A DNA stretch of 64,000 nucleotides from Eubacterium sp. (GTDB lineage Bacteria; Bacillota; Clostridia; Christensenellales; CAG-314), in NCBI GenBank assembly GCA_963653425.1, contig CAVJWC010000001.1, positions 55,596-119,595 of the forward strand, in the 5' to 3' direction. The notes below the pieces were generated by a model, which made no database searches, had not been told where the DNA came from, and was given only the letters and a program-made list of their open reading frames with translations. The stretch's first letter is position 1. Every line of letters begins with the position of its first letter. Shown here piece by piece: positions 3-64,000 of this stretch. A program made the translations under genes and the position numbers.

Positions 3-134
3 GCTGTGGTTTCGCTTGTTGGTCGTGCGTCTCAAAAGCCCGTTGAAGGCGAAAAAGTCGTTCACGCCATCGAACTCGACGAAGTTTACGACACTTCCGA
101 AAGCCTCGAGGATTTGCTCGGAGAATTAGGTTAA
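3..134 (+). CDS. 3' end of unidentified gene (partial; continues left of window)
   Basis: Frame 3 is open from the window edge and ends ...GRASQKPVEGEKVVHAIELDEVYDTSESLEDLLGELG* (TAA 132-134). A strong terminator follows. No family recognised. Confidence 0.3.
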   Translation, partial: AVVSLVGRASQKPVEGEKVVHAIELDEVYDTSESLEDLLGELG

Positions 135-234
135 AAACCCGAATTAAGTTAAACTCGCGAAAAGTCCCGTAAAGGCAGAAATTCGCCTTGCGCAAACCTT
201 TTCGGTTGACTTAAACGAAATTATAAAGCAAACG

Positions 235-271
235 AAAAACGCCCGTAACCGTATCGGTTCAGGCGTTTTTT
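235..271. terminator. bidirectional intrinsic terminator
   Basis: aaaaACGCCcgtAACCGtatCGGTTcaGGCGTtttttt: nested GC stem flanked by an A-run and a T-run, between the converging partial CDS (+) and the PAP2 gene (-). Confidence 0.7.
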
Positions 272-342
272 AGTCTGAAAGTTTATTAAGAAGCATTCCG
301 TTCAGGGTAATATCGACAAAGAGAGTCACGCCGAAGTTTACT

Positions 343-1254
343 TTATTCCGCTTTTTCGTTCTCTTTTTTAACGAAAAGCCTGTCGGTAAATCTGAACGAG
401 AAGGGATAAATTCCCACGACGAACAGGAACATAATCGCGTATCTTACGAGTTTCAGCCAATTTGCGGCTTGACCTTGGCTTGCTATAAGCGCGAATAAAG
501 GTTTAAGTCCGAGATAAAGTCCCGTAAGAAGCGCAAGTCCTATCACCGAACGGCAGATAATCTGTCCGAGACCTTTTGCGTTTTGAAAGTTCACGTACTT
601 TCTTTCTATCTTTAAGCCTATAAGCATTCCCACCGTCATTCCGTAGCCGGCAAAAATATCTCCCTGCGTGTTTGCGAAAAAGTCCACGAAAAGAGGCATA
701 ATCAGAAACGGAAGCGGAACCGTCAGTAAAAGCACGGCGAGAAGTTTTTCGTGCTTTCTTGCAAAAGACGGAATAACGAAAGCGCAGAAGATTCCCAGAA
801 GAGCGCCTACGAGAACGTCCGTCGCGTAATGCGCGCCGAGATAGTTTCTCGAAAACATTATAAGAATCGTCATAACCGTAGCTAAAACGTAAAAGACTTT
901 CTTTTTGAAGTAATCCGCGAAAGAGAAGTACAGAAATGCGCCGTTCTGCGAATGTCCGCTCGGGAAACTGAAACCGTCTACGGGTTTAAGTATTTTTACC
1001 TGATTTGAAGCCGTCCAGGGGCGGGGCCTTTGAACGATATTCTTTATAACGCAGTTAAGCGAACACGAAGCGCACGCCGCAAGTCCGAGGTATACGGCTG
1101 TCTTTTTGTCGAAAGCCCAGTAAAAAACGCAGAAAACCGCTGCGATTACCAGTTCTTCGCCGAAAAATGTGAATATTCTGTTCAATATATACAGCAACGA
1201 GCCTTCCTGTCCGAGACTTTGAAGCCATACGATAAAATTGATTTCCCAAAGCAT
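343..1254 (-). CDS. PAP2-family membrane phosphatase
   Basis: PAP2 motifs VQRPRPW, PSGHS and SRNYLGAHYATD, plus several TM segments. The ORF-track start at 1299 is a GTG. The ATG at 1254 (MLWEINF...) has GAGGAG 6 nt upstream and is preferred. Confidence 0.85.
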   Translation of the reverse strand: MLWEINFIVWLQSLGQEGSLLYILNRIFTFFGEELVIAAVFCVFYWAFDKKTAVYLGLAACASCSLNCVIKNIVQRPRPWTASNQVKILKPVDGFSFPSGHSQNGAFLYFSFADYFKKKVFYVLATVMTILIMFSRNYLGAHYATDVLVGALLGIFCAFVIPSFARKHEKLLAVLLLTVPLPFLIMPLFVDFFANTQGDIFAGYGMTVGMLIGLKIERKYVNFQNAKGLGQIICRSVIGLALLTGLYLGLKPLFALIASQGQAANWLKLVRYAIMFLFVVGIYPFSFRFTDRLFVKKENEKAE

Positions 1255-5617: not shown

Positions 5618-7468
5618 ATGAAATATACGGAAATTGAATTAAGAGAAAAAACTTTAACCGAACTCAGAAAAATAGGCGGTTCCGTTGGCGTTGCCAAATA
5701 CAGCAGAAAGCAGGCGGAAGAACTTATCAGCCTTATTCTTGCCATTCAGGAAGGCGAGGTAGAACCTGCCGTTATGAAACGCGGACGTCCGAGGAAAGAC
5801 GCTCATTCTCAGTCGGACTTTTTGCAGGAACAGAAAAAAGAGAGTAGAAAATCGGTTGCGGAAGTTTCTCAGCCCGTACAGAGAGTTACGGTCTATCCGA
5901 CCAAGCCTCAGATTCGCGATTTTACCGAAGAAAATCAGAGAAGAAACGAAGGCTGTATAGATTTCAGAAACAACGGCGAGAACGGCGGAAATTACCAGAA
6001 CCGTCAGAAAGTCGGCTCTTACGACGATTACGTAAATTCGCGGATAGTTCAGCCCAAACAGCCTAAAAGAGATCCTCTCCGTCAGAAATCTTCGGGCGAC
6101 TGGAAAATCAAAACTCCCGATGGAACTGAAAAAACCGTTGCCGAGCAGACGGACAGAAGTCAGAACGTTCAGGACGGCATAAAGAACTTCGACGTCGCGG
6201 ACGGTTATCAGAATCCCGCCAAGTCCGATAATTACGAAGGTCAATCCGTATCTTACGGCGAAGAGAGTTGGAGAGAGAGCAGAAAGCCGATAAAATACGA
6301 AGAATCTTTTGACGTTCAGCAGGATTTCGACGTTTCGGGAATAGTAGAAGTAATGCCCGACGGATACGGCCTTTTAAGAACGGTAAACTATTATCCGTCC
6401 GACGCAGACGTTTATATTCCCGCAATGCAGATCAAGCGTTTCCAGCTCAGAAACGGCGATAAACTTAACGTCCGCGCAAGACCTTTCCCCAACAACAGAT
6501 ACCCTTCGGCTATATTCATTTACTCAATCAACGACGTTCCCTGCGATCAGCTTACCGCACGCGTGAATTTCGAAGATCTGACGCCCATATATCCGATGGA
6601 AAGAATAAGACTTGAAGACGGTCAGCATCAGTTCGACGTGGCTTTAAGAGCGATAGACCTCGTTTCTCCCATAGGAAGAGGACAGAGAGGACTTATCGTT
6701 TCTCCGCCAAAGGCAGGTAAGACGGTTCTTTTGAAGAGCATAGCTCAGGCAATACTCAGAAACTACGACGATATTCACGTTATCATACTTCTCGTGGACG
6801 AGCGCCCGGAAGAAGTCACGGATATAAGAGAAAGCGTAGACGGAGCGGAGATAGTTTATTCCACCTTCGATATGACTCCCGAACACCACACGAAAGTTGC
6901 CGAACTCGTAATGCAGAGAGCAAAGAGAATGGTGGAAATCGGAAAGCACGTGGTTATATTGCTCGACAGTATCACTCGTCTTTCGAGGGCTTACAATCAG
7001 GTTACCGAACAGACGGGAAAGACTCTTACGGGCGGTCTTGACAGCGCGGCGCTTTACGAACCCAAGAGATTCTTCGGCGCGGCAAGAAACATCAAGGGCG
7101 GAGGAAGCCTTACCGTTATAGCGACGGCTCTCGTGGATACGGGAAGCAAGATGGACGATATAATCTACGAAGAATTCAAAGGCACGGGCAATATGGAAAT
7201 TCACCTGAGCAGAAAGATGTCCGAAAGAAGAATTTTCCCGGCAATCGACCTGAATAAGAGCGGAACGCGCAGAGAGGAATTGCTTCTTAACGCCAACGAA
7301 CAGGAAGGAATGTGGATTTTAAGACGTATTCTTTCCAAAGCCGACAACGCCGACGCAACCGAAAAGATTCTGGATATGCTTCTTGCAACCAAAACCAACG
7401 AGGAATTCCTCGAATACGTCCGTTCAAAAATCGGTACGAAGCAAAACAAACCCAATCCTACGCTATAA
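5618..7468 (+). CDS. rho: transcription termination factor Rho with ~190-aa N-terminal insertion domain
   Basis: Rho_N helix bundle (aa 1-45), CSD-like [14 protein letters not shown] at aa 241, Walker A SPPKAGKT, Rho C-terminal ATPase motifs. 616 aa against about 420 for minimal Rho. Confidence 0.95.
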
Positions 7469-7573
7469 ACTTACAGCGTAAAATATGACGCTATAAACTT
7501 ATAGTGCAGAATATGACGATAGATAATGAAACTATAATTCCCTACAGGGCTTTCAGCCCAAACACCGACCCAA

Positions 7574-7607
7574 AACCGCAACGCCCGAAATCGTTGCGGT
7601 TTTTTTT
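7574..7607 (+). terminator. intrinsic terminator downstream of rho
   Basis: AACCGCAACG-cccgaaat-CGTTGCGGTT followed by TTTTTTT. Confidence 0.85.
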
Positions 7608-7681: not shown

Positions 7682-7710
7682 TTGCATTATTTTTTGATTT
7701 ATGATATTAT
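7682..7710 (+). promoter_or_regulatory. sigmaA-type promoter for the heptad-repeat protein gene
   Basis: TTGCAT (7682-7687), 17 nt spacer, TATTAT (7705-7710). This implies a ~170-nt leader. Confidence 0.5.
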
Positions 7711-7890
7711 ATAGGTCATACGGAGAGGTATCCGTAAAAGGGTTGACGTTTCGGGCTTTTATCCGATTGTTTTCAGGCGCGTCGCGCGCCGGACGTTATA
7801 CCGTCGCATTTGGGGGAAGAACGGCGGAATATCGGTAAAATTACGGACAGGGCTATACAGCGAAACGTCTCATGGAAATGAGGATTAAAA

Positions 7891-9450
7891 ATGGCGAAAG
7901 ATAAAAACGAGTTGTCAACGGAAAAAGGCGCGCTTTTCAGATTGCCCGATTCTTACTTTGACGGCGTAAAAACGGAGAAAACGCTGGATTTTCTTAACGA
8001 CGGAGCAACTTATACGTTTACTCCGCAAAACGAAGCTTACGGAGAAGAAAAGCTTTCGGGCGATTCTCTGCGTGGCGACGTTATGGATTCAGAGGGCGAA
8101 AGCATAGGCGTTTTCGATTTCGACGGAGGGTATATTCCCGCAACGAAGAAGAAACAGCTTGCGCAAAAGCAGAAAGATCAGACAAAAGTGCAGGAAGAAG
8201 AGGACGAAGAACCCGTTAAACGCAGGGCTTCGGACGGCATTCAGATAGTAGACCTTCCCGTTGAGATAAAGCCCGCGTCGCAACAGATTCTGCCGACGGC
8301 TATCGGGGATAATTTCGGCGGTTCTCAGTTCAGAACGGCTGTTATCAACGGAGAAAGAGTAGTTTACGCGCCCATGGATTCCATGATGAACGGAGGAATG
8401 AATCCTTTCGGAATGATGACTCCCAACATCACCATAAACCCGCAGAACATTACGATAAATCCGCAGTCCGTCACCATGAACCCGAGCGTCGTTCAGATGA
8501 ACCCGGAAACCGTTACGATGAATCCCAACGTAGTTACGATGAATCCCGAAACGGTTACCATGAACCCCAACGTGGTACAGATGAATCCCGAGACCGTTCA
8601 GATGAACCCCGGGGTAGTAAATATGAACCCCGAAGTCGTTCAGATGCGTCCCGAAGTCGTACAGCTCAAAACCGACGCCGTTCAGATGAAGACCGATTCG
8701 GTCAATATGGCTCCTACGGAAGTTAATATAGAAAAACCCGAAACGAATACCGATCGTCAGGCTTTACCGAACGCGAAGGAGGGAGCGGGCGCCGAAACTC
8801 AGACCGTTCCGCTCGTAAAAGACGAAAAACCTTCTTCCGAACAGAACAACGCCGATTTGTCCGCAAGAGCGGGATATAAGGTTAAAGTCGAAGACCAGCA
8901 GATAAGCCTTGACGACGAGTTTATAAGCACTATTTCAACCCGTATCGTGGGCGAACTCAAAAAAGACGGCGTCGTTTTCTTCAGTAATTCTTCCGCAAAT
9001 GCGGCTGTGGATTCGGGCTTTAAGTACGGAGCCGAAGAAGAACCCGAAGCTGAAAAGAACGAAGAAACTTCAGACCAGGAGGACGCGGACGATAAATCCC
9101 TTTCGCAGAAAGCGGGAGCTTCCGACAGAGGACGTTCGCGTACGTCCGAAGGCGTGAAAGTGGAAGTTCTGGACGAGGAAGATTCTCATAAACCCGTAGA
9201 ACCCGAAATAATCGAACTCGGAGGTGCGCCCGTCACGCCCGCGTCTCAGGCTAAATCCGAAATGAAGAAGAAGCCTTCTTTCCTTAGAGATTTGTTCAAC
9301 AGAATTCTCTCGATTTTTAGAGGCGGAAGGAAGAATACCGAAAACGGCGTTAAGTCTCTTCCCGCAGGAAATTCGGGTAAAAAAGCTTTAAGCGAAAAAA
9401 TCGAAGGCGCGGATAAACTCGGTTCGGTTTACGACTATTTCGGAGAATAA
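7891..9450 (+). CDS. hypothetical acidic protein with 15 tandem V-x-M-N-P-x-x heptads
   Basis: 519 aa, RBS GAGGAT, no signal peptide or TM. Heptad array at 8428-8742. The C-terminus contains an amphipathic stretch PSFLRDLFNRILSIF. No family recognised. Confidence 0.75.
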   Translation: MAKDKNELSTEKGALFRLPDSYFDGVKTEKTLDFLNDGATYTFTPQNEAYGEEKLSGDSLRGDVMDSEGESIGVFDFDGGYIPATKKKQLAQKQKDQTKVQEEEDEEPVKRRASDGIQIVDLPVEIKPASQQILPTAIGDNFGGSQFRTAVINGERVVYAPMDSMMNGGMNPFGMMTPNITINPQNITINPQSVTMNPSVVQMNPETVTMNPNVVTMNPETVTMNPNVVQMNPETVQMNPGVVNMNPEVVQMRPEVVQLKTDAVQMKTDSVNMAPTEVNIEKPETNTDRQALPNAKEGAGAETQTVPLVKDEKPSSEQNNADLSARAGYKVKVEDQQISLDDEFISTISTRIVGELKKDGVVFFSNSSANAAVDSGFKYGAEEEPEAEKNEETSDQEDADDKSLSQKAGASDRGRSRTSEGVKVEVLDEEDSHKPVEPEIIELGGAPVTPASQAKSEMKKKPSFLRDLFNRILSIFRGGRKNTENGVKSLPAGNSGKKALSEKIEGADKLGSVYDYFGE

Positions 9451-15385: not shown

Positions 15386-15510
15386 TTGTTTCGCCTCTTT
15401 TCGATTTTAACATTTTTTCGCGCCGTTGTAAAGTGCTTAGCTTAAAAATGTAATTTACATAGAAATTCCGTTAGACGACGGCTACCCGAACCGTAACGAC
15501 GTGAGCGACG

Positions 15511-15583
15511 CCGATAAAAACGGAGGAAAAACGCCGCCGATAAAAACGGAGGAAAAACGCCTGTAAAAACGGAAAAAACGACG
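15511..15583. repeat. tandem 26-bp repeat, about 3 copies
   Basis: CCGATAAAAACGGAGGAAAAACGCCG (15511-15536), a second copy 25/26 identical (15537-15562), then a degenerate third unit. Confidence 0.85.
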
Positions 15584-15588
15584 CCGAT

Positions 15589-15613
15589 TAAAAAAGGCTG
15601 CCCGAAGGCAGCC
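15589..15613 (-). terminator. intrinsic terminator of spo0A
   Basis: GGCTGCC-ttcg-GGCAGCC followed by TTTTTT on the minus strand. Confidence 0.8.
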
Positions 15614-15671: not shown

Positions 15672-16523
15672 TCAGCTATTGTTTTCCTGTTCAGAAGAGT
15701 CGCTTTCCGCGTCGTCTTTCTTCTTTTTACGCTTCTTGTTTTTGACGTGGTCGCCTTCGAGAAGAAGCTTGTCCGCAAGGAGAGCGATGAATTCGCCGTT
15801 AGTCGGTTTTTCGTTTGCCGAATAGACTTTAACTCCGAAAAGAGAATTTATGTTTTCTATCTTACCGCGATTCCAGGCAACTTCGATTGCGTGACGAATG
15901 GCGCGTTCCACTTTACTGCTCGAAGTTTCGAAATCTTCGGCTATCGACGGGTAAAGCTCTTTGGTTATGTTGTTGATAATAGGCGGGTTTTCGACGGCTA
16001 ATTTTATCCCTGCCCGCAGGTAATGATACCCTTTTATGTGCGCGGGAATTCCGACGCTTATAAATACCGACGTTATTCTTTCGTCGATGGAACGGTTCCT
16101 GTATCTGAAAGAATTTTCCGCGCTTGCCGTGGTTATGGGAGAGGGCGGACTGGTGCGGAAGGAAGGTCCCTGAATTTTTTCGAGAATAACCGACGGATGA
16201 CAGGGTTTTATGAAGCAATATTCCGCGCCCGAAGCAAAGGCTTCCGAAATAATTTTACCCGCGCTTAAAGATGTGAGAACGTAAAACGACGGAGCAATTT
16301 CCTGTAAATCACTGCTTTTGCGGATAAAAGTTATTCCGTCCATCACGGGAAGAATAAGATCGGTTATAACTACGTCGATATGCTGTCTGGACATAAAATC
16401 CAACGCGGCTTGCCCGTCGCTTACGCAGTCTACGGAAGAAAAATATTCCGAACCTGACATATAATCTACGAGCTGAGTTGTTTCCGGACTGTTTTCCTGG
16501 ATTACCAAAAGGGTAGGCTTCAT
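15672..16523 (-). CDS. spo0A: sporulation master regulator Spo0A
   Basis: 283 aa. Receiver domain (VVITDLILPVMDG, IKP) plus the Spo0A-specific C-domain (GIPAHIKGYHYLRAGIKLAV...SKVERAIRHAIEVAW). RBS AAGGAGA. Confidence 0.95.
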   Translation of the reverse strand: MKPTLLVIQENSPETTQLVDYMSGSEYFSSVDCVSDGQAALDFMSRQHIDVVITDLILPVMDGITFIRKSSDLQEIAPSFYVLTSLSAGKIISEAFASGAEYCFIKPCHPSVILEKIQGPSFRTSPPSPITTASAENSFRYRNRSIDERITSVFISVGIPAHIKGYHYLRAGIKLAVENPPIINNITKELYPSIAEDFETSSSKVERAIRHAIEVAWNRGKIENINSLFGVKVYSANEKPTNGEFIALLADKLLLEGDHVKNKKRKKKKDDAESDSSEQENNS

Positions 16524-16748
16524 GAAGCATTCTCCTTGAATAAATATTTTATTTTCACGGATTGTAAAAATCCGTTGAATTTATATTAAAAATATTTTTA
16601 TCGGGTTTCTTTCGAGCTTTTATCTGTATTTTTAATTCGTAAAAATGTCTTTTTTCTCTTGACGCGATTATAATAACACATCTGATTTCAAAATGCAAGC
16701 ATTTTTACAAAATATTTTTGTCTTTTTAACACTTAATTTGGCGTAATT

Positions 16749-31561: not shown

Positions 31562-31614
31562 AACAAAGTTAAACTTTGTTGAAGGTTGCCCGATACCCGT
31601 TCGGGCGACCTTTA
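31562..31614 (+). terminator. tandem hairpins / terminator after the ferredoxin gene
   Basis: AACAAAGT-ta-ACTTTGTT, then GGTTGCCCGA-tacccgt-TCGGGCGACC followed by TTT. This overlaps the TTG start given in the ORF track for the next gene. Confidence 0.6.
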
Positions 31615-31627
31615 TCAAAATTTAGGT

Positions 31628-32485
31628 ATGAAAAAAGCGTCTTCTCTTCGTTATATATACAAAAACTTTTTCAAGCTGGTTCTTATAGTGGTGATTCCGG
31701 CTGCGTTTTTGGCGCTGTTCAGGTCGGATTATATAATTTCCGACTTTTTCGTTAATTTCGCCAAGAATATCAAAGGTTTTACGATAGAAGACTTTTATAA
31801 AGACGTTTTCAGATATTTTTCTTTCATCAACTTCGACAGTTTCGGAAATTTTATTCTGTGGTTTTTAAGCGCGTCTGTCGCCGTAGTCGGTCTGGGTGCG
31901 CTTTTCAGCGCTGTGGAAAGGCATATGCGCTTGGGCGTTCCCGTTAATTTCAGCCTTGTGCCTCTTATTAACGACAGTCTCGTAATCGTTCTTCCCTTTG
32001 CGGGAGTGGTTTTTCTGAGTTGCGAACTTCTCGGTCTGGTCACGAGCGGTATTATATCTTTGCTTTTTCTTATTATAAAAAGCAAACAGGTTCTTTTTGC
32101 GGTATGTCTTCTGCTCGTGGTAATTCTTTACGCGCTTTATTTTGCGTTCGTCGCGCTGGTATGTCTGTCCGTACCGGCTTCGCTTATAGACGGATACAGC
32201 TTTAATTATTCCGCAGCCACGTCCATCAACCTCGTAAAAGAAAATCTTTTACGGATAACGGCGGCTCTCGTGCTTCCTCTTTTGGGAACCATGCTTGTCG
32301 TAAGCCTGCTGAAATTGCTTTTCTCGCTTTTTTCGCCGACGGCTCAGGACATATGCGGAACGATAACCTGGACGATTGTCTACACTCTCTGGATGGTCTA
32401 TTTCCCCGTTCTGACGATAAGATATTATATGCATCTTACGGGTATGGAACGTATAGATACTCAGTTTATCGTAAGGAGGAAGTAA
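31628..32485 (+). CDS. hypothetical polytopic membrane protein
   Basis: About 6 hydrophobic segments. Start moved to ATG 31628 (MKKASSLRYIYKNF...) because the track start (TTG 31586) lies inside the terminator hairpin. Confidence 0.65.
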   Translation: MKKASSLRYIYKNFFKLVLIVVIPAAFLALFRSDYIISDFFVNFAKNIKGFTIEDFYKDVFRYFSFINFDSFGNFILWFLSASVAVVGLGALFSAVERHMRLGVPVNFSLVPLINDSLVIVLPFAGVVFLSCELLGLVTSGIISLLFLIIKSKQVLFAVCLLLVVILYALYFAFVALVCLSVPASLIDGYSFNYSAATSINLVKENLLRITAALVLPLLGTMLVVSLLKLLFSLFSPTAQDICGTITWTIVYTLWMVYFPVLTIRYYMHLTGMERIDTQFIVRRK

Positions 32486-32488
32486 ACG

Positions 32489-33436
32489 ATGAAAGTGACA
32501 AAAACGCTCAGCCTTTTCGGCTCAAACCGATTATTACTGCTTAAAACGTCTCTTTCGAGATTCGCGGTAATCTTAATATTTCTGTCCGTTCCGATACTTC
32601 TTCTCAACTGCTCGGTAAGCCAGTTTGCGAAATTTATGGACGAGTCCGTGGACGCGCTTTCGCTTCTTACCGAAGAAATGTCGAGCGGTAAGGTCTATTC
32701 CGCGGAAGGATTTTCCGAAGTTTTAAGGAAATTCGTGTTTACGGTCTACGACCTGTTCGATTCGCTTTTCGTGAATTGTCCCGAATACCTTTCAAAACCC
32801 GTCGTTATTTACGTTGGAATAGCGATTTTCTATTTTCTTTTCAGACTGTTTGACGGGCTTTTCGATTTCTCGACGACGGTCGGACTGAAAGAATTTATGA
32901 AGTGCGGAAGACCTTCCCCCTATTTATGGGGAATTTACAAAAACTTCGGTAAATTCATAACTTACGAGCTTCTCTATATCCTCGTAACTACTATTGCCGA
33001 TGCCGTTATATGTTTTGCCGTCATAGGAGCCTACGTTTCCTTTTTGGTAGAACTTAAACTTCTCGGCGTTATAATAACGGTCGTATTCGCTCTTTTATGC
33101 TTTGCGTTCAGAGGAGCCGTATTTGCTTTCTGGGCGGCGGAAAGAGTAGTAGAAGATGAAAGCGTTGGGAAGAGTCTTAAAAATTCGCTTAAACTGATAA
33201 CGGACAGATTTTTCCCCGTCTTCGTATCTACTTTTATAACTCTGCTTCTGTGTCTGACGACTGTAGTTTTATTAAGGCTTTTCGTCGGCAATCCGATAGT
33301 ATCGTGGGTGCTTTCGCTGGCGTCTGTTCTTATATCGGGATACGAACTTCGTTGTATGGATCTCGTGCAGTACGCCGAAGCCAAAGGCAAGCCTTACTTT
33401 ACGAAAAAACTTGATCTGGTGGTAAACAATGGCTGA
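32489..33436 (+). CDS. hypothetical polytopic membrane protein
   Basis: 315 aa, RBS AAGGAGG. 3-nt gap to the upstream gene and 8-nt overlap with the downstream flavoprotein gene. Confidence 0.7.
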   Translation: MKVTKTLSLFGSNRLLLLKTSLSRFAVILIFLSVPILLLNCSVSQFAKFMDESVDALSLLTEEMSSGKVYSAEGFSEVLRKFVFTVYDLFDSLFVNCPEYLSKPVVIYVGIAIFYFLFRLFDGLFDFSTTVGLKEFMKCGRPSPYLWGIYKNFGKFITYELLYILVTTIADAVICFAVIGAYVSFLVELKLLGVIITVVFALLCFAFRGAVFAFWAAERVVEDESVGKSLKNSLKLITDRFFPVFVSTFITLLLCLTTVVLLRLFVGNPIVSWVLSLASVLISGYELRCMDLVQYAEAKGKPYFTKKLDLVVNNG

Positions 33437-49243: not shown

Positions 49244-51583
49244 ATGAATACGAAAAAGACATCGCTCGTAATGCTTGCAGTGCTTGTCGCTCTTATGTTG
49301 GTTTCCTTTTCAGGCTGCATAAGACCTGACGAACTCGACCTTCCGGAAGTTATTCCCGGAGAAGATTCCATAGTAAACGACCTCACCCTCACTCCCGATA
49401 AATACAGCGCTCGTATGAGCGTTTTTGCAGCTCTCGGCAAACTCGATTCCGCAAAAACTTACCTTTCCGAAAGTCACGGAAAAACCGTTGCCACCAAGGG
49501 CGTTATAACTTACACTCAGAACATCGAATGCAACTCCGTTAAAAACGGAAATGAATTTTACACGAAATCCGTTTCCGATTCCACGTTCGTGAACGTTTGT
49601 CACGAAGCTTTCGCAAAGAACGGCAAAGTCGCTTACAGAACGGACGGAGGAGCTATTCTCAACTCCACAAAGAGCGAATACGTTTCGGTTTACGGCGTAA
49701 CTCCCGACAAGCTTCTTTCCGGTCATATCTATAACTCGGATACCATTCTTTTCGCTCAGCTCGAATCTCAGGAAAACGGACTTTACACCTATAAGATCGT
49801 TCTCGATAAGACCACGGCTACGGCTCTTCTCGTTCGTCAGATGAAGATGCTCGGAAGTCTTTCTTCTCTTCCCGTTTTTAACGACAATATCGCCGTTACT
49901 CTCGTGATGAAAGAAGATTTTACTCCCGTAAGCCTGTCTTCCGTAAGCAAATACACCGTTGCGGGAACTCTTCTCGGAACTATGGACTGCACGGAAGAAA
50001 ACACCGTCCTTTTCGGTAACTTCAATTCGTCCGTTTCCGTTCCCGATACCAAGGATTTCAATTTGGCAATCAACGAAGAACCCGGTAAAATCGATTACTC
50101 CGACGAAGCTATAGACGAAAACGTTGCCGCCGTAATTTCCGCCGCTCTCAACGCCGACCTTAAAGGCGGTATCGTGCTTAACGGTTACGTGGACTACAAC
50201 GGCAAAAAGCTTCCCTTATGCATAAAGAACAAAGTCGATATCGACGGAATAATCGACGGAACGGTTGACTTCAACGACGCTTTCGAAGCTGAAATGTCCG
50301 TAGTTACTTATAGCGGAGAAATGTCCGTGCTTTATCACGAAGGCAAGTTCTATATGAACTTTATGGGCAACAAATACGCTTTCAGCACCAACGAAAAAGA
50401 CAGAGACGTAAACTTCGAAGAAATCGACATCAACGAATTCGTTACCGTTACTAAAAACGCAGAAAATCCGTCCGTTTACGATATTACGCTCAGCGACGAA
50501 TATATGAGCGCGGTTACGGAGCTTCTTTCGGCAGCAGGACTTCTCGGCGAAGAAGATTCTCTTGAACTCGGTTTGTCCTGTTACGTTTCGAACGGAAGAA
50601 TCGCTCAGATCGACGCGGCTTTCAAGACCGATATGACTGAAGAACTTTCGGCGCGTTTCTATATTTCCGATTGCATTTACGAAGAAGCGAACGAAGAAGA
50701 ACTGAGCGAATATCTCACTCGTATGGACTTCGCTTTGGACAGCACGATTAAGCTTCTCGGTTTCGACGCAAGCGGTAAAATCGCTCTTTCCTATAACACC
50801 GAAGAACCCGATCCCGCAAAGGCTTTCGAACTCAGCGCAAAATACGTTATAAATTCCAGAGAAAAGAACTTCTCGGAAGTTGCTGCTATCTTCACTAAGG
50901 ACATTCCCGAAATCGTTTCCGCTCTCGATGACGCAGAAACCATTGAAATTGCGGTTAAAGACGGATATACCTATCTTATCGCTTTCGACGCAGAAGGCAA
51001 TACAGTAGTGGCTGAAAATCTCGGCGCATTCTCCGATAAGCTTGCCGATCTGTTTGCTCTTATCAAGGGAGACGACAGCGAAGAAGAAGAAAGCACGCCC
51101 AGCCCCATGCTTAAAATCGCGCTCGATATTCTGAAAAAGACCTATATCATTTCCTTCGAATCGGACGCAACTTACGAGAACAAGCTTCTCAAAGCGCATT
51201 TCGGCGAAGAAATGACCAATCTGGTTCGTATGATGTGGAATCAGCTTCCCAGACTTATAGGTTTGTACGTTCCCGGAAACCAGACCGTTATCGACATCTT
51301 TGCAAACGAAGATTTCATTCAGCTTATGAAGTTCGATAAAGTATTCTGCGATTTAAGCGCGGGACTCAGAATTCCTTACGACGACGACGTAAATCTCGTC
51401 TGGAAGAACACCGAACTGTATCTTTCTCTTACCGTATTTGACGTAACTCGCAGCGAATACGACGAAGAAGAGGATTACGACGTAATCGACGTAGTTTATA
51501 TCGGCTTCACGCTTACCGAAGAAGTTCCTTCCGAAATTTTAAGCGAAGCTACTCTCGCGGCTATCGAAGCGATTGCTGACTAA
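49244..51583 (+). CDS. large hypothetical lipoprotein (779 aa)
   Basis: Signal peptide with lipobox VSFSGC. RBS AGGAGG. Acidic, no family recognised. Divergent from the XRE gene. Confidence 0.75.
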   Translation: MNTKKTSLVMLAVLVALMLVSFSGCIRPDELDLPEVIPGEDSIVNDLTLTPDKYSARMSVFAALGKLDSAKTYLSESHGKTVATKGVITYTQNIECNSVKNGNEFYTKSVSDSTFVNVCHEAFAKNGKVAYRTDGGAILNSTKSEYVSVYGVTPDKLLSGHIYNSDTILFAQLESQENGLYTYKIVLDKTTATALLVRQMKMLGSLSSLPVFNDNIAVTLVMKEDFTPVSLSSVSKYTVAGTLLGTMDCTEENTVLFGNFNSSVSVPDTKDFNLAINEEPGKIDYSDEAIDENVAAVISAALNADLKGGIVLNGYVDYNGKKLPLCIKNKVDIDGIIDGTVDFNDAFEAEMSVVTYSGEMSVLYHEGKFYMNFMGNKYAFSTNEKDRDVNFEEIDINEFVTVTKNAENPSVYDITLSDEYMSAVTELLSAAGLLGEEDSLELGLSCYVSNGRIAQIDAAFKTDMTEELSARFYISDCIYEEANEEELSEYLTRMDFALDSTIKLLGFDASGKIALSYNTEEPDPAKAFELSAKYVINSREKNFSEVAAIFTKDIPEIVSALDDAETIEIAVKDGYTYLIAFDAEGNTVVAENLGAFSDKLADLFALIKGDDSEEEESTPSPMLKIALDILKKTYIISFESDATYENKLLKAHFGEEMTNLVRMMWNQLPRLIGLYVPGNQTVIDIFANEDFIQLMKFDKVFCDLSAGLRIPYDDDVNLVWKNTELYLSLTVFDVTRSEYDEEEDYDVIDVVYIGFTLTEEVPSEILSEATLAAIEAIAD

Positions 51584-58594: not shown

Positions 58595-58706
58595 TTAATC
58601 GTTTGTTTTGCGATTGGCTATTTAATCGCTTTTACGATTGGTTGTTGTTGCTTAATCGCTTGTTTTACGATTTGGTTTTAATTAAATCGCTTATTTTACG
58701 ATTATG
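58595..58706. repeat. four-unit tandem repeat; first unit is the 3' end plus stop of the subtilase gene
   Basis: Plus-strand units TTAATCG(C)TT(G)TTTTACGATTGG start at 58595, 58622, 58652 and 58682 (period 27-30). The unit at 58682-58706 contains codons ...IIVK and the stop. Confidence 0.85.
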
Positions 58707-61700
58707 TTTTTGAAGTAAGTTCTCCAGATGTAGTTGGTGTAAGAAACGTCGCTGCTTACGTAAATCTTAACGCCTTCGTTTCCGTTTGCTTCTTCGATGT
58801 TATTTACGAACTGGTTATAGAGGTATCTTGCGCCGTCTCTGTAATAGCTCTGAAGAACGGGTGCCTTTTCGGATTTGAAGGTGATTTCGGTAAGAGCCGT
58901 GCAACCGAAGAATGCTCCGTCGCCGATATAGCCGAGGCTTTCGGGAAGAACTACGTTCTTAACGGTCGTATTTCCTGCGAAAGCTTCTGCGTCTATCTTA
59001 ACGATTCCTTCGGGAAGAGTTACGTTTGCTTCCGTTCCGAAGTATCTGTAGAGAACGGTCTTGTCTGCGTTATAGAGTCCGTCTTCGAATTCGGTGAGAA
59101 CTTCACAGCCGTTAAGTTCAACGGAAGCAATGTTGGTGGAACCGAAGAATACTCTGGAGAAGTTGAATTCTGCTACGGCTCCGAGCGTTACCTTTTCGAG
59201 GGTTTCTATTGCGCCGAAAGCTTTGTTTCCGAGGTATTCCGCATTGTTTACGGTAACTTCGGTGAGCTTGGTTGCATAGAAAGCGTTGTCGTCGATTTCA
59301 ACGAGATCGTCGCTCAGAACTATTTCTTTAAGTGCCGAGTAAGCGAATGCTTTTTCACCGATGCTCTGAACCGCGGGTAGAACTACCTTTTCGAGGTTGG
59401 GCGCGCCCATAAACGTTCCTGCGGTGATTGCGGTAATGCTTTCGGGCAGTACGAGTTCGGCTACGGTGCTTGCCGTCGGGTAAAGAAGGATAGCCGTTTC
59501 TTCCTTGTTGAAGAGAACGCCTTCTACCGAAGCAAAGTATGCGTTGTTCTCGTGAACGACGATTTCTTCGAGAGCGTCACAGCCCGTGAAGGTTCCGAGC
59601 GCGTCGAAGTAACCGAGTTTTTCGCCGATGTAGAAAGATTTAAGAGAGGTGCAGTATGCGAACGCGTTGTAGCTTTCTCCTTCGAAGCTCATTACCGATT
59701 CGATGGTTTCGAGAGCGGGGAAGTAAACCGATTCGATCTTGTCTGCATAGCAGAAGGAAGAACCGGTGAGAATCTGTACGTTTTCGAGTTCGAGTTCGGT
59801 AAGACCGGAGTTCTTAAACGCGTAGTCGCAGATAACCATTACGTTATCGATACCCGTAATTTCTCTGAGAGCGGGCGTATTGCTGAAAGCTCCCATACCT
59901 ATCGTCTGAGAATCGGTGTTGAGGAAGGTTACCTTTTCGAGTTTTTCGCAGTTTACGAACAGATAAGGCACGTCTGCGGTAATGTACGCAGGAACTTCGA
60001 TTTCAACGAAACCTGTGCCGGAATAGAAGCTTTCGTAAGTTTCCACTTCGACGTTTTCGCCGATAACGATTTCGGTAAGGTTATGGCAGTCCGTCCAGAC
60101 GCCAGAAGCTATTCTCTTGGTGTTTTCGCTCGTTACGAAGCTCGTTATAGCCGTTCCCGCAAGAGACTGCGTTTCGAATACTTCGATGTTTTCGATGTTG
60201 ATTTCTTTAAGGTTGGTGTTTCTGTAGAAGCAATATGCGGGCAAAGTCTTCAGCTGACTTCCGAGTTTAACTCCCTGAAGGAGAGTCTTGTCGTAGTCGG
60301 CAGAAACGAACGTGGATCTGAGATTCCAGTAATAACCTCCGCCGTATTCGCTTTCGGGACGGATACCGTAATCAGGTTTAACGTATTCGGGAACGTATTC
60401 GGGAATGGAGAATGCTCTTTCGTTAAGTTCGGTTATGGTTTCGGGCAGTTCGAGTACGCCGTCATAATCCCATGCAAAGGGCTTATACAGCGTGGTCTTT
60501 TCTGCGTTGTAAACGAGGCCGTTTTCGTCTTTAACGAGTTTGTCGTTACCTTCGAGAACGTTAAATCCGCCTGCAAGCAGATTGCTTCCGCCGAATGCTA
60601 AATTACCGATATAACCGATAGTTCCGCCGAAAGATACGTTGGAAAGCTTGGGACAGTCCGCAAACGCGAAACCGTCAATCATTCCTACGTCTTTTTCGAA
60701 GATAACTTCTTTAAGGCTCATAAGAGAAGAGGTTGCCTGACTGTACTGTTTGGGATAATACGGACCGTTATCCGAAATACCGCCTATACGGGTTACGTTG
60801 CCGTGGAAGACTATTCTTTCGAGCTTATCGCAGAAAGTCAGAGAGTAAGCTACTCCCATAGACGCACTGATGTGGCTTTCGAGAATATTAACGTTACCCA
60901 TAAATTCGACTTCTTTAAGAGAGTCGTTGAACATAACGGAACTCTGCATAAATTCGACGTCGCCGAGGAAGGTTACCTTTTCGAGGTTGGGACATACGGC
61001 TACGGAGAAGCCCAGACTGAGAGCGGTGCTTGCCTTGGGGAAGGTAAGAGTCTTAACGCCGAGACCGTTGAACGAGAAGGCTGCGTTGTTGATGCTGGTG
61101 TTTTCGAGATCGAGAGAGGTAAGCTTGGGAAGCGTACATACGGAAATGCCTTCCAGTCTTTCCAGAGTTGTGGGAAGAATGAGTTCAGTGAGGTTATAAA
61201 GATTCATAATGGAATAACCGTTTATGATCTTAACGCCTTCGGGAAGCACGATCTTGGTGATTCTGCTGTCGCCGTTGAAGACGAACGCGCCTATAGAGGT
61301 AACGCCGTCGGGTACTATAACTTCTCCGCCTTCACCGTTATAAGCCTTAAGAACGCCGTCTTCGATAACGAATTCTTCTGCTTGTTCTTCTTCGTTTTCG
61401 GAATTAACGACTGCGCCGTTCATTGCGACGGAGCTGTCAAAGCTGTTGTAAGTACGTACTTCCGTGTAGGAAGGATCGTTTACGTCGTAGTAAATTACGA
61501 AGTTGTCGGTGCGGTATTTAACTGCAAGAGTGCGGTTGTCGTTGCCAGTAATAACAGCGTTTGCGTTGTTTTCACCGCTATCGGGAAGTTCGATTTCGTA
61601 AACCGAAACGTTTCTTGCGTAGTCCACGAGCTGAACGGCAAAGGTGTTATTTACAACGTTAGCCATATAATCGGTAACGTCTATGGAGTAGGAGTAACTT

Positions 61701-64000
61701 CCGTTCTTAACGTCGCCGTAGCAGGGGAACATGAATCTGTAGAGATTGCTGTAACTGTCTTCCGTTCCGTAGGTAAGAAGACCCGTTGCCTGCAGATAGT
61801 GGTTGTCGTAAACGGTAAGATCAAGGTAAGTTCTGCCGTCTTCCGTTCTCCAGGCAGCCTTTTCAAGCGTGGGAGCTTCGAGGTCTACGAATACGGGCAT
61901 ATCCACAACCTGTCCTACGGGTTTGTCGTTGAAGTCGTAGGTGAAACTGAAGAGAATTTCTTCGTTATTTGCGAACATCATTGTTTCGGGATAGAATTCG
62001 CTGATGTTAAGCGCGTATCCGCCTTCGGTACCTACGCAGGCTTTTCTTACGTTATAGAAAACGTCCTGACCGAGACTTTCGTTGGTGTCGGTTTTGGAGT
62101 AACTGAGATAAATAGCCGAAGCGTTACGTTTGATACTGAGGTTAAGAGCGTTAAGCATTACCGTTCCGTCGAATTCGCCGTTTTCGTCAACGCCTCTGCC
62201 GATAGCGGCTTTGTCAGCTTTAGCCGTGGGAGCCTGGTATCCGTCGGGAAGGTCGTAAGAATATACGCCCGCGTTAATGGTCTGACTCGTCGTTTCGCCG
62301 TAAACCGAGGTTTCATAAACTATAAACGAAAGACCGAAGTAGTTGTCCCAGGTAGGAACGGCGCCGTCGGAAGCCGTGGGTTCGTATGCGGGAAGAGTCA
62401 TCCAGTCGCCGTAGAAAGCTATGTAAGGAATATGAAGATCTATTCCGTCTTCGTCGGTGCTTTCGAGAACCGCAAAGCCTTCAACGTAAATACCGTTGGG
62501 GAAGGTTTCGTCCATATAAGCTTTATGTTCTTCGGTAAGAGTGACAACTGCCTTTATTTTAAGCTTTTCGCCTGCTTCTACGGTGATTTCGTCGCCTTCG
62601 AGAAGTTCGCCGTTTACGTAATACTTAATTTCCGCGCCGTCGAGCATATATGCCTTTTCGGCGATCATAAGCTTATCTTCGCCCTTTGCGGTGTAGTAAA
62701 TGGATTTACCCGTAACTGCGGATTCTGTGAAGGTAAGTACGTTGAGTTTATATCCGAGAGCGTTTTCGCCGTCGTTTACAACGTTGAAGTTAAGAGTATA
62801 AATACCGTCTTTTTCGGTGTCGCTACCGAGGTTGAGTTTGGTTCTGTCCGAACCCGTTACGGTAATATAAGCGTCGGTTTCGAAAGCTCTCGTAATGTCC
62901 GCAAGACCCGAACCCTGTCTTCTGGGGGTAATGGGGTTGCCTTCGGCGTTTTCAAGAAGAATAGCCGTACTCATAAGACGTTGTATTGCGAGATTGGAAA
63001 TTTCCGAAGGAGTCTTATTCGGATAGGTCTGTTTAAGGTAGCCTTTAAGAACAGCCATAACGCCCGAAACGTTGGGGGTAGCCATGGAGGTACCGTCCAT
63101 ATATTCGTAGCCGTTGGTGCCGTATATCCAGTCGTAATACATAGGAACGGCAGAGTAAACGCCACCGCCGATACCGAGAATGTCTACGCCGATGGAAAGG
63201 TCGTTAAGAGCGCCCATCGAAGAGAAGTAAGAATATTCGATATAATAGTTGGAAGAGGTGATCGTAATGCGTTTGTCCTGCGCGTCAGCGAGCATAGTTC
63301 CGTCTTCGAGAGTGATGGTCATGGTGGGGATAGCGTCTTCGCCTACGACAGCGCCGAATTTTCCGATTTCTTCGCTTACGTTATCATAAAGAATACAAGC
63401 TATCGCGCCTTTGTCCGTGGCGTTCTGAACCTTTTCCGTAAAGGTGATTTCGCCTCTCTGAACGAGAGCGATCTTGCCCGTAACGTCAAGTCCTTCGTAG
63501 TCTTCGGGTGCGCCCGCGCCGGGTACTGCAACGTATTCGAAGGTTGCTTCGTCTTTTCCGTCAAGAATAGCGAGGAAATCGCTTTCTTTACTCGTTGCGG
63601 AATCTATAACGCCGTTTCTGCCGATCATTCTCGTGCCTTCGAAGTCGATGTAAACTCTCATAAGGTTGTTTGCGGAACCTACGGCAAAAGTGCCGTCGTA
63701 AGAAGCGGGGGAGCTTACCGTGCCGTTATCGGGATCGTCAACCGTGGAGAACGGATCGAGAGTGTCGGAGAACCACCAAGCCGTACCTACGTTACCCGTT
63801 GCGCAACACATAGTAAGACCTGCTTTTCTTGCAAGGTCAACGATGTCGTTTACGAACTGCTTCTGTTCGGATTTTTCGTAAGCGAAACCGCAGTTACTGC
63901 CGAGAGAAAGGTTAGCTACGTCAACGCCGAGAAGCACGCAGTCTTCTACCGCAGCGTAGATGTCGGTGTCGTTTGCGCCCTGCTGTCCTGCGCCGAAAAC
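58691..64000 (-). CDS. giant subtilase (S8) - PA domain - BspA-type leucine-rich-repeat protein (partial; N-terminus beyond the window)
   Basis: The frame is open to the window edge. It has the catalytic Ser motif DGTSMATPNVSG (Ser codon 63086-63088), the oxyanion region NLSLGS, and a PA insert (GKIALVQRGEITFTEKVQNATDKGAIACILYDN). From about 61350 downward there are about 900 aa of LRR_5-like repeats (...IGxxAFxxCxxLxxIxLPxxL...). Confidence 0.9.
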   Translation of the reverse strand, partial: VFGAGQQGANDTDIYAAVEDCVLLGVDVANLSLGSNCGFAYEKSEQKQFVNDIVDLARKAGLTMCCATGNVGTAWWFSDTLDPFSTVDDPDNGTVSSPASYDGTFAVGSANNLMRVYIDFEGTRMIGRNGVIDSATSKESDFLAILDGKDEATFEYVAVPGAGAPEDYEGLDVTGKIALVQRGEITFTEKVQNATDKGAIACILYDNVSEEIGKFGAVVGEDAIPTMTITLEDGTMLADAQDKRITITSSNYYIEYSYFSSMGALNDLSIGVDILGIGGGVYSAVPMYYDWIYGTNGYEYMDGTSMATPNVSGVMAVLKGYLKQTYPNKTPSEISNLAIQRLMSTAILLENAEGNPITPRRQGSGLADITRAFETDAYITVTGSDRTKLNLGSDTEKDGIYTLNFNVVNDGENALGYKLNVLTFTESAVTGKSIYYTAKGEDKLMIAEKAYMLDGAEIKYYVNGELLEGDEITVEAGEKLKIKAVVTLTEEHKAYMDETFPNGIYVEGFAVLESTDEDGIDLHIPYIAFYGDWMTLPAYEPTASDGAVPTWDNYFGLSFIVYETSVYGETTSQTINAGVYSYDLPDGYQAPTAKADKAAIGRGVDENGEFDGTVMLNALNLSIKRNASAIYLSYSKTDTNESLGQDVFYNVRKACVGTEGGYALNISEFYPETMMFANNEEILFSFTYDFNDKPVGQVVDMPVFVDLEAPTLEKAAWRTEDGRTYLDLTVYDNHYLQATGLLTYGTEDSYSNLYRFMFPCYGDVKNGSYSYSIDVTDYMANVVNNTFAVQLVDYARNVSVYEIELPDSGENNANAVITGNDNRTLAVKYRTDNFVIYYDVNDPSYTEVRTYNSFDSSVAMNGAVVNSENEEEQAEEFVIEDGVLKAYNGEGGEVIVPDGVTSIGAFVFNGDSRITKIVLPEGVKIINGYSIMNLYNLTELILPTTLERLEGISVCTLPKLTSLDLENTSINNAAFSFNGLGVKTLTFPKASTALSLGFSVAVCPNLEKVTFLGDVEFMQSSVMFNDSLKEVEFMGNVNILESHISASMGVAYSLTFCDKLERIVFHGNVTRIGGISDNGPYYPKQYSQATSSLMSLKEVIFEKDVGMIDGFAFADCPKLSNVSFGGTIGYIGNLAFGGSNLLAGGFNVLEGNDKLVKDENGLVYNAEKTTLYKPFAWDYDGVLELPETITELNERAFSIPEYVPEYVKPDYGIRPESEYGGGYYWNLRSTFVSADYDKTLLQGVKLGSQLKTLPAYCFYRNTNLKEINIENIEVFETQSLAGTAITSFVTSENTKRIASGVWTDCHNLTEIVIGENVEVETYESFYSGTGFVEIEVPAYITADVPYLFVNCEKLEKVTFLNTDSQTIGMGAFSNTPALREITGIDNVMVICDYAFKNSGLTELELENVQILTGSSFCYADKIESVYFPALETIESVMSFEGESYNAFAYCTSLKSFYIGEKLGYFDALGTFTGCDALEEIVVHENNAYFASVEGVLFNKEETAILLYPTASTVAELVLPESITAITAGTFMGAPNLEKVVLPAVQSIGEKAFAYSALKEIVLSDDLVEIDDNAFYATKLTEVTVNNAEYLGNKAFGAIETLEKVTLGAVAEFNFSRVFFGSTNIASVELNGCEVLTEFEDGLYNADKTVLYRYFGTEANVTLPEGIVKIDAEAFAGNTTVKNVVLPESLGYIGDGAFFGCTALTEITFKSEKAPVLQSYYRDGARYLYNQFVNNIEEANGNEGVKIYVSSDVSYTNYIWRTYFKNIIVK

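Follow-up and report, generated by a model that had tools for sequence, protein, structure and literature searches.

A strict seven-residue repeat in an apparently undescribed protein family of uncultured gut Clostridia

Bactofilins (PF04519/DUF583) are cytoplasmic proteins in which very short strands form sides of about six residues within an 18-residue winding, with disordered extensions at the termini, and they are said, in the work of Deng et al. 2019 behind the structure 6rib, to bear a short membrane-targeting peptide. Hexapeptide (PF00132) and pentapeptide (PF00805) solenoids are likewise built of short tandem units that keep an aliphatic residue, their periods being six and five residues, and a strict seven-residue period with proline (Pro) recurs in the YSPTSPS units of the RNA polymerase II C-terminal domain (CTD), which is hydrophilic and a target of phosphorylation. 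In LpAFP (LpIBP), the ice-binding protein of ryegrass and a beta-roll with a seven-residue period, the repeat is of heptad scale (NXVXG/NXVXXG), with two repeats to each 14-15-residue coil and rows of Asn in the core (PMC5744647). Here we describe a gene for a protein of 519 amino acids (aa), found in a 64,000-nucleotide (nt) stretch of the genome of Eubacterium sp. from the Christensenellales lineage CAG-314 (assembly GCA_963653425.1, contig CAVJWC010000001.1, positions 55,596 to 119,595 of the forward strand), hereafter the window. This protein, which we call the heptad protein, carries 15 seven-residue units in tandem and resembles each of these systems in part.

The array opens with two units of the NITINPQ type, continues with nine of the form V-x-M-N/R-P-x-x and closes with four that are degenerate yet remain in phase (VQLKTDA, VQMKTDS, VNMAPTE, and VNIEKPE). 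All of the first 11 units match [VI]-x-[MI]-N/R-P-x-x. Counted as consecutive recurrences at a period of seven residues, the runs reach 11 for Pro, 13 for V, 10 for N, and 9 for M, whereas 5000 shuffled versions of the protein gave longest Pro runs of 2.0 on average and of 5 at most; the periodicity is far beyond chance. In the DNA, Tandem Repeats Finder detects repetition over 8468-8690 with periods of 21, 42, and 84 bp. A first-pass annotation of this DNA, made from the letters alone, had listed the 15 heptads one by one, and the sequence translates to exactly those units. V, T, and I are abundant in the array, which holds no aromatic residue and no Cys and has a net charge of -6 over 105 aa.

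Selection on the repeat acts at the level of the protein, and DNA slippage does not account for it. Among the nine core units, mean nucleotide identity is 67%, with a value of 0.51 at codon position 3 versus 0.75-0.76 at positions 1 and 2, and the residues V1, M3, and P5 show zero non-synonymous and many synonymous differences. Moreover, when 13 homologue clusters (29-100% identity) are aligned, no region of the protein is better conserved than the array core, which has 21 of its 78 columns invariant and a mean majority fraction of 0.76, as compared to zero to two invariant columns in the acidic linkers. Two distinct NITI(N/Q/S)PQ units open the array in every family member, VTMNP units come next, and the number of heptads ranges from 10 to 19 across the family. 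Indels within the array are whole heptads in all cases, and strains that are 97-99.6% identical differ solely by indels of 7 or 21 residues. It is the fixation of V1, M3, and P5 despite divergence at third codon positions, taken together with the high conservation of the array and the confinement of its indels to whole heptads, that identifies the protein as the level on which selection acts.

We found no match to the heptad protein in Pfam, NCBIfam, PHROGs, or PADLOC; the Pfam limits were E 0.1 for the window protein and E 10 for the 13 members. The sequences of the PDB matched neither a whole-family profile nor one with the repeat deleted, and a literature search on motif strings returned nothing relevant. 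The repeat, which the first-pass annotation had not recognised, thus falls in no family described in these sources. A word-indexed search of 5.8 billion proteins yielded 13 clusters with a single annotation among them, 'hypothetical protein [Clostridia bacterium]'. When 1.84 billion representatives were searched with a full HMMER profile, 293 matched; among the best 150 of these 293, seven are full-length family members and the remainder match in the repeat region only. Twelve non-family matches were inspected and rejected as homologues because their repeats are heptad-like but unrelated (VTLNPSR, ETIVAKP, and similar), and many of them resemble spurious open reading frames (ORFs). An array-deleted profile recovered the same family only, with no heptad-free relatives detected.

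The distribution of the family is narrow. Across 185,579 species genomes of GTDB it occurs at three loci (the uncultured Clostridiales UMGS692 and UMGS929, and one Clostridia metagenome-assembled genome), and the metagenome matches come from human-gut assemblies. The window protein is 50% identical to its UMGS692 orthologue, and GTDB assigns UMGS929 to the family CAG-314 of Christensenellales (PMC11098793). Judged from these sequence searches, the family is undescribed, rare, and confined to a few uncultured gut Clostridia of the Christensenellales type.

The gene is real and conserved, and it encodes an acidic cytoplasmic protein (Table 1). Full-length homologues share 29-54% identity with it, which settles in its favour the conservation on which the first-pass annotation had made its proposal depend, and their ATG codons are likewise preceded by comparable purine-rich ribosome-binding sites. 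The acidic character that had been ascribed to the flanks is borne out by net charges of -7 (aa 46-116) and -10 (aa 383-436), and the absence of a transmembrane segment by a Kyte-Doolittle 19-residue mean that peaks at 0.53. Outside the array, conserved modules are set apart by poorly conserved, mostly acidic linkers. AlphaFold2, run on the full length with the 13-sequence alignment and on aa 140-300 with 7 sequences, predicts a short helix within the N-terminal module (aa 28-37; predicted local distance difference test, pLDDT, 52-59) and a hairpin plus a helix (aa 366-374, pLDDT about 55) in the module that follows the array. Between these, the region just before the array (aa 117-178) has 7 of 62 columns invariant, and its hairpin at aa 148-159 is present in both AlphaFold runs.

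Near the C-terminus, the segment FLRDLFNRILSIFR (aa 464-477) has a helical hydrophobic moment of 0.76, the maximum for the whole protein, and the same aligned position is the top-moment segment in 11 of the 12 full-length homologues. Its sequence drifts among homologues (FLGRLWDKILGLF, FFGRIAERLRRRF, and others), always with K/R flanks. The helix as a whole (aa 462-482) carries a net charge of +4, and AlphaFold places a helix at aa 464-476. We regard it as a candidate membrane-targeting or partner-binding helix, so that the amphipathic segment singled out in the first pass keeps its standing. The membrane-targeting sequences of the MinD/FtsA type are likewise short cationic amphipathic helices near the C-terminus, K/R-flanked, in which character is kept over sequence. 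They differ in that the helix here ends at about aa 477-482 of 519 and is followed by a conserved tail, and in that membrane binding is putative in this case.

Table 1. Coordinates of the heptad-protein gene, its parts and its flanking signals, numbered from the first letter of the window.
Feature	Position	Strand	Details and basis
Intrinsic terminator of rho	7572..7607	+	12-bp hairpin + U8; -16.7 kcal/mol, z-score -3.96
Predicted sigma-A-type extended -10 promoter, TTGCAT-N17(..TGA)-TATTAT	7682..7710	+	comparison of upstream regions
Ribosome-binding site GAGGA	7880..7884	+	6 nt 5' of ATG; sequence reading
Coding sequence of the heptad protein	7891..9450	+	519 aa, isoelectric point 4.6, no Cys, no transmembrane segment, no signal peptide; ORF call
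N-terminal module (aa 1-45), MAKxK..EKGxKFxLPxxYF..TLxFLNDG	7891..8025	+	8/45 columns invariant
Pre-array motifs DGIxIVDxPxxIxP (aa 117-128), INGEKVV hairpin (aa 148-159), M..G..PFG (aa 166-173)	8239..8409	+	
Array of 15 in-phase heptads (aa 180-284)	8428..8742	+	15 x 21 bp, no indel; translation, Tandem Repeats Finder, shuffling
Module aa 346-382, TRVVGxxRKDGxVFYD..AA..GxxY	8926..9036	+	7/37 columns invariant
Short motif PxIxELG (aa 438-443)	9202..9219	+	P438, I440 nearly invariant
Candidate cationic amphipathic helix (aa 462-482), PSFLRDLFNRILSIFRGGRKN	9274..9336	+	hydrophobic moment, conserved position, AlphaFold
C-terminal tail LxSVYDYF (aa 510-517)	9418..9441	+	3/10 columns invariant, mean majority fraction 0.74
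RumA/RlmD-derived gene, 399 aa	9539..10738	+	NCBIfam, PDB matches, motif conservation

In the model of aa 140-300, the array shows a strict EEEE--- pattern, i.e. one four-residue strand per heptad, at a pLDDT of 50-56 versus 30-45 in the flanks. In the full-length model, short helices and hairpins appear just at the conserved modules. A coiled coil, against which the first-pass annotation had argued, is contradicted by a Pro in 11 consecutive heptads and by an array modelled as strands with no helix. We queried the PDB by Foldseek with the array model, the full-length model being too poor for a fold search. The resulting list of weak neighbours consists mostly of beta-solenoids, namely LpxD, GlmU, YadA-like heads, bactofilin (2n3d and 6rib), the CsgA curli fibril, FapC, and LpIBP (3ult). 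The EEEE--- pattern and this solenoid-dominated weak list together make the earlier guess of an extended or beta-solenoid-like array the better structural reading; the strand per heptad speaks for it, while the solenoid itself is tentative, given the low confidence of the models and the lack of a significant Foldseek match.

The likenesses to described systems are partial ones. Like bactofilins, the heptad protein is cytoplasmic, with disordered extensions, with very short strands that are here predicted and with a candidate membrane-targeting peptide, and both bactofilin structures stand among the weak neighbours of the array model. It differs from them in that the PF04519 profile matches none of the 13 members, in its period of seven with a Pro each time, in its much greater length, and in its acidic linkers. 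LpxD and GlmU, which are of the hexapeptide type, also appear among the weak neighbours, but the strict period of seven and the absence of a Pfam match set the array apart from PF00132 and PF00805 alike. The likeness to LpAFP/LpIBP lies in Asn and Val, which, like M and P, are invariant per heptad in the array also, and in the presence of the folds of 3ult and the YadA-like heads (3s6l and 1p9h, with 14-residue coils) in the weak list, where they are not significant (3ult, E 3.3 and template-modelling (TM) score 0.11; 3s6l, E 0.16; TM <=0.15). LpIBP and the YadA-like heads are, however, secreted or surface proteins with other functions, without sequence similarity to the heptad protein and without a Pro per repeat.

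We hypothesize that the heptad protein is a vegetatively expressed, membrane-tethered beta-repeat scaffold, a reading to which we give a probability of roughly 0.35. Its parts are all inferred: the beta structure, the binding to the membrane, the role as a scaffold, and the connection with the downstream gene. Transcription would proceed from the gene's own housekeeping sigma-A-type promoter, probably together with the RumA-derived gene that lies downstream. The array of 10-19 heptads would adopt a regular beta structure in which every heptad contributes a short strand, with V1 and M3 on one face and N-P-x as the turn, and would form a narrow beta-roll or solenoid-like rod, possibly completed on self-association only, whose length would be set by copy number. 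The disordered acidic linkers carry five or six short conserved motifs that would act as partner-binding sites, and the cationic amphipathic helix would keep the assembly at the cytoplasmic side of the membrane. The product would then be a membrane-associated structural scaffold or adaptor, following a bactofilin-like logic while being unrelated to bactofilins.

A more ambitious version of this scaffold, which we consider doubtful, is that of a new cytoplasmic beta-solenoid or self-assembling scaffold with a seven-residue period, an independent analogue of bactofilins in a gut Christensenellales lineage that would be membrane-tethered, of strain-variable length, and partnered by a RumA-derived pseudo-methyltransferase that would bind Fe-S and RNA. 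Neither the family nor its repeat has been described, while the likely kind, a short-period beta-repeat or a disordered scaffold with an amphipathic anchor, is familiar. Were the array to fold or assemble into a beta structure with a seven-residue period, it would constitute a new repeat class beside the pentapeptide, hexapeptide, bactofilin, and LpIBP roll types of short-period solenoid, and a new cytoplasmic scaffold would become known from an uncultured gut lineage that is associated with health and has been little studied. As an orphan repeat protein of narrow distribution, it opens no long-standing question.

Several observations weigh against the proposed scaffold. The full-length AlphaFold2 model has a mean pLDDT of 39 and a predicted TM score (pTM) of 0.15 and holds no folded domain, and the array model, too, is of low confidence overall (mean pLDDT 46.6, pTM 0.27). 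Foldseek returned nothing significant against the PDB for the array model, with a best E of 0.058 and TM <=0.23. A disordered array is about equally compatible with these models, and a Pro per heptad and single-heptad indels suit a flexible array of linear motifs as well as they suit a solenoid. Moreover, the 14-residue alternation of the window array (N-V / E-T) is lost in distant homologues. About 37 residues trail the amphipathic helix, which places it short of the very C-terminus, and it may serve as an interface between proteins instead. The linkage of the gene to its downstream neighbour, for its part, could be synteny inherited within a narrow clade.

Most of these points can be turned to the account of an intrinsically disordered array, i.e. 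a multivalent platform of linear motifs or an entropic spacer whose units bind a partner or a periodic surface (e.g. a filament), with the membrane helix and short motifs as further docking sites. The RNA polymerase II CTD and other Pro-containing disordered platforms offer an analogy, and only that, in that they share with the array a strict seven-residue period with Pro, a variable copy number, and repeats that are more conserved than their surroundings. Besides the low AlphaFold confidence and the want of a significant structural neighbour, the Pro in each heptad, the change in copy number by single heptads between near-identical strains, and the acidic, low-complexity, poorly conserved remainder of the protein would all fit such a platform. 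The array is, however, rich in V, I, T, and M, residues that promote order and strands, and bears little charge, a composition that together with the predicted strands distinguishes it from the CTD. In addition, AlphaFold renders the array as regular strands and not as coil, and the first two units are always of the NITINPQ type, which suggests positional identity in a defined structure and not a set of interchangeable motifs. We consider the disordered platform the main rival to the scaffold and only slightly less probable than it.

The signals upstream of the gene bear on an idea raised in the first pass as pure inference, that of a coat, septal, or other structural role in an organism presumed to sporulate. 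An element of the form TTGC(A/G)(A/T)-N14-TGn-TAnnnT lies upstream of the gene at 15 of the 15 loci with upstream DNA, which represent six lineages. Two matches to the pattern TTGCRW-N14-TGN-TAKWWT are present in the 64-kb window, where 0.01 would be expected, one before this gene and the other at 16670-16698 (-), about 150 nt upstream of spo0A (15672..16523, -). A sigma-70 scan missed the predicted promoter, the -35 hexamer of which fits at 3-4 of 6 positions, and an Rfam scan of the window returned nothing, hence no leader RNA family in the 180-nt 5' region. As a separate observation, the same promoter pattern is also found upstream of spo0A in the UMGS692-type loci L001 and L008.

A sporulation-specific coat, exosporium, or septal scaffold would take shape in the cytoplasm of the mother cell. 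The lack of a signal peptide and the presence of tandem repeats that vary in copy number between strains, both seen in the heptad protein, are typical of coat and exosporium proteins (e.g. BclA and CotG). Moreover, spo0A, the one sporulation gene met in the window, is present here, and a SpoIIE-domain gene lies near one homologue. Yet the one element that is conserved upstream is a predicted sigma-A-type extended -10 promoter like that before spo0A, and no conserved sigma-E, K, F, or G-like motif was seen by eye in the upstream regions. The protein shows no similarity to coat, exosporium, or sporulation families in Pfam or NCBIfam, its neighbours across loci are housekeeping genes (rho, der, plsY, hflX, lexA, and nifU), and one member genus belongs to Christensenellales, the type species of which is described as non-sporulating. 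We therefore find no support for the suggested sporulation role, nor, on the in silico evidence of a sigma-A-type element, for dependence on a sporulation-type sigma factor, and consider this explanation improbable.

The methionines of the array could, alternatively, form a 'Mets' motif that binds Cu(I) or another metal, or a sacrificial antioxidant sink that methionine sulfoxide reductases would regenerate. The heptads hold one Met each, with M at position 3 in 11 of the 15 units by our count, and a Met-rich lead-in, MDSMMNGGMNPFGMM, precedes the array. Nevertheless, units at the ends of the array and units of distant homologues have I or L in place of M at position 3 (e.g. NITINPQ, VNIQPDV, and VQLKTDA), which indicates that the constraint there is on hydrophobicity and not on a thioether. 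The protein holds no Cys and 0.2% His, it is cytoplasmic where known Mets motifs are periplasmic or extracellular, and no msr or cop genes lie near the examined loci; a metal-binding or antioxidant role is accordingly most improbable. Lastly, a non-functional or fast-decaying ORF with a repeat arising by slippage of a 21-bp minisatellite would suit a rare family with no function or homology found, but it is contradicted by conservation at the protein level, as seen in full-length orthologues with conserved modules and in units that differ mostly at synonymous sites, and also by the conserved promoter and ribosome-binding site, and it hardly deserves credence.

The gene downstream of the heptad gene encodes a protein related to RumA/RlmD in its N-terminal half. 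Against the NCBIfam RlmD model it scores 97 bits, over aa 17-224 only and below cut-offs of 183-458, and its match to the PDB entries 2jjq and 1uwv is restricted to aa 18-190. Cys69, 75, 78, 153, and 156 are conserved; we take Cys69, 75, 78, and 153/156, which are invariant, to correspond to the 4Fe-4S ligands of RumA. The C-terminal half shows no GxGxG motif for S-adenosylmethionine (SAM), no conserved catalytic Cys, and no methyltransferase alignment, and a terminal PYDMxPQT motif alone remains there. With the RumA-like N-terminal half kept and the SAM and catalytic motifs absent, the product looks like a methyltransferase-dead RumA derivative, and it is possibly a pseudo-enzyme partner of the heptad protein.

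This partner is about as rare as the heptad protein, with three close relatives in the word-indexed search, and its gene lies downstream of the heptad gene on the same strand in every lineage with enough DNA. The two are adjacent in four lineages, separated by one intervening gene in two, and about 6 kb apart in one. In the window, the 88-nt spacer between them contains no terminator-like site. It is a small puzzle that the heptad gene should be paired in a conserved way with a seemingly methyltransferase-dead RumA derivative in which the cluster cysteines and the RNA-binding half persist. One locus (L011), considered as an exception lacking the partner, was rejected as a chimeric low-coverage contig. 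At positions 4..1200 of this contig, which has 2.2x coverage, a heptad protein with 10 heptads is fused in frame to a helicase-like C-terminus; the fusion is most likely an assembly chimera.

On the upstream side, rho (5618..7468, +) directly precedes the heptad gene and is separated from it by its own intrinsic terminator. The first-pass annotation had placed the protein downstream of rho, but rho is the upstream neighbour in the window alone, and four different genes take that position in other lineages. These settings include a 414-aa protein without a Pfam match, a metallophosphoesterase with plsY and der, and nifU with iscS. We therefore reject a rho linkage as incidental. The 414-aa protein stands in the place of rho in two loci outside the window (L001, 6421..7665, and L005, 6187..7431), the copies of the two lineages being 85% identical; the window lacks it, and it shows a weak, sub-threshold match to an encapsulin ferritin-like cargo family. 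In the rho of the window, about 190 additional residues (aa 45-235) separate the N-terminal domain from the RNA-binding domain; this insertion is charged and 16% N+Q. Across the rho stop codon lies a 28-bp tandem repeat (7460..7518, 2.1 copies, unit ACGCTATAAACTTACAGCGCAAAATATG) with a short inverted repeat in each unit.

Elsewhere in the window, three ORFs of 299, 315, and 779 aa, located at 31586..33436 (+) and 49244..51583 (+), have no Pfam match at E values up to 1e-5. A 26-bp tandem repeat (15509..15594, 3.5 copies) lies between a XerC/XerS-like recombinase gene and spo0A. At 58691..63937 (-), a 1748-aa protein combines a subtilase (S8) domain with PA, Fn3-like, and BspA-type leucine-rich repeat parts, and in the UMGS929-type loci L003 and L007 the heptad gene likewise has proteins with BspA-type leucine-rich repeats encoded nearby.

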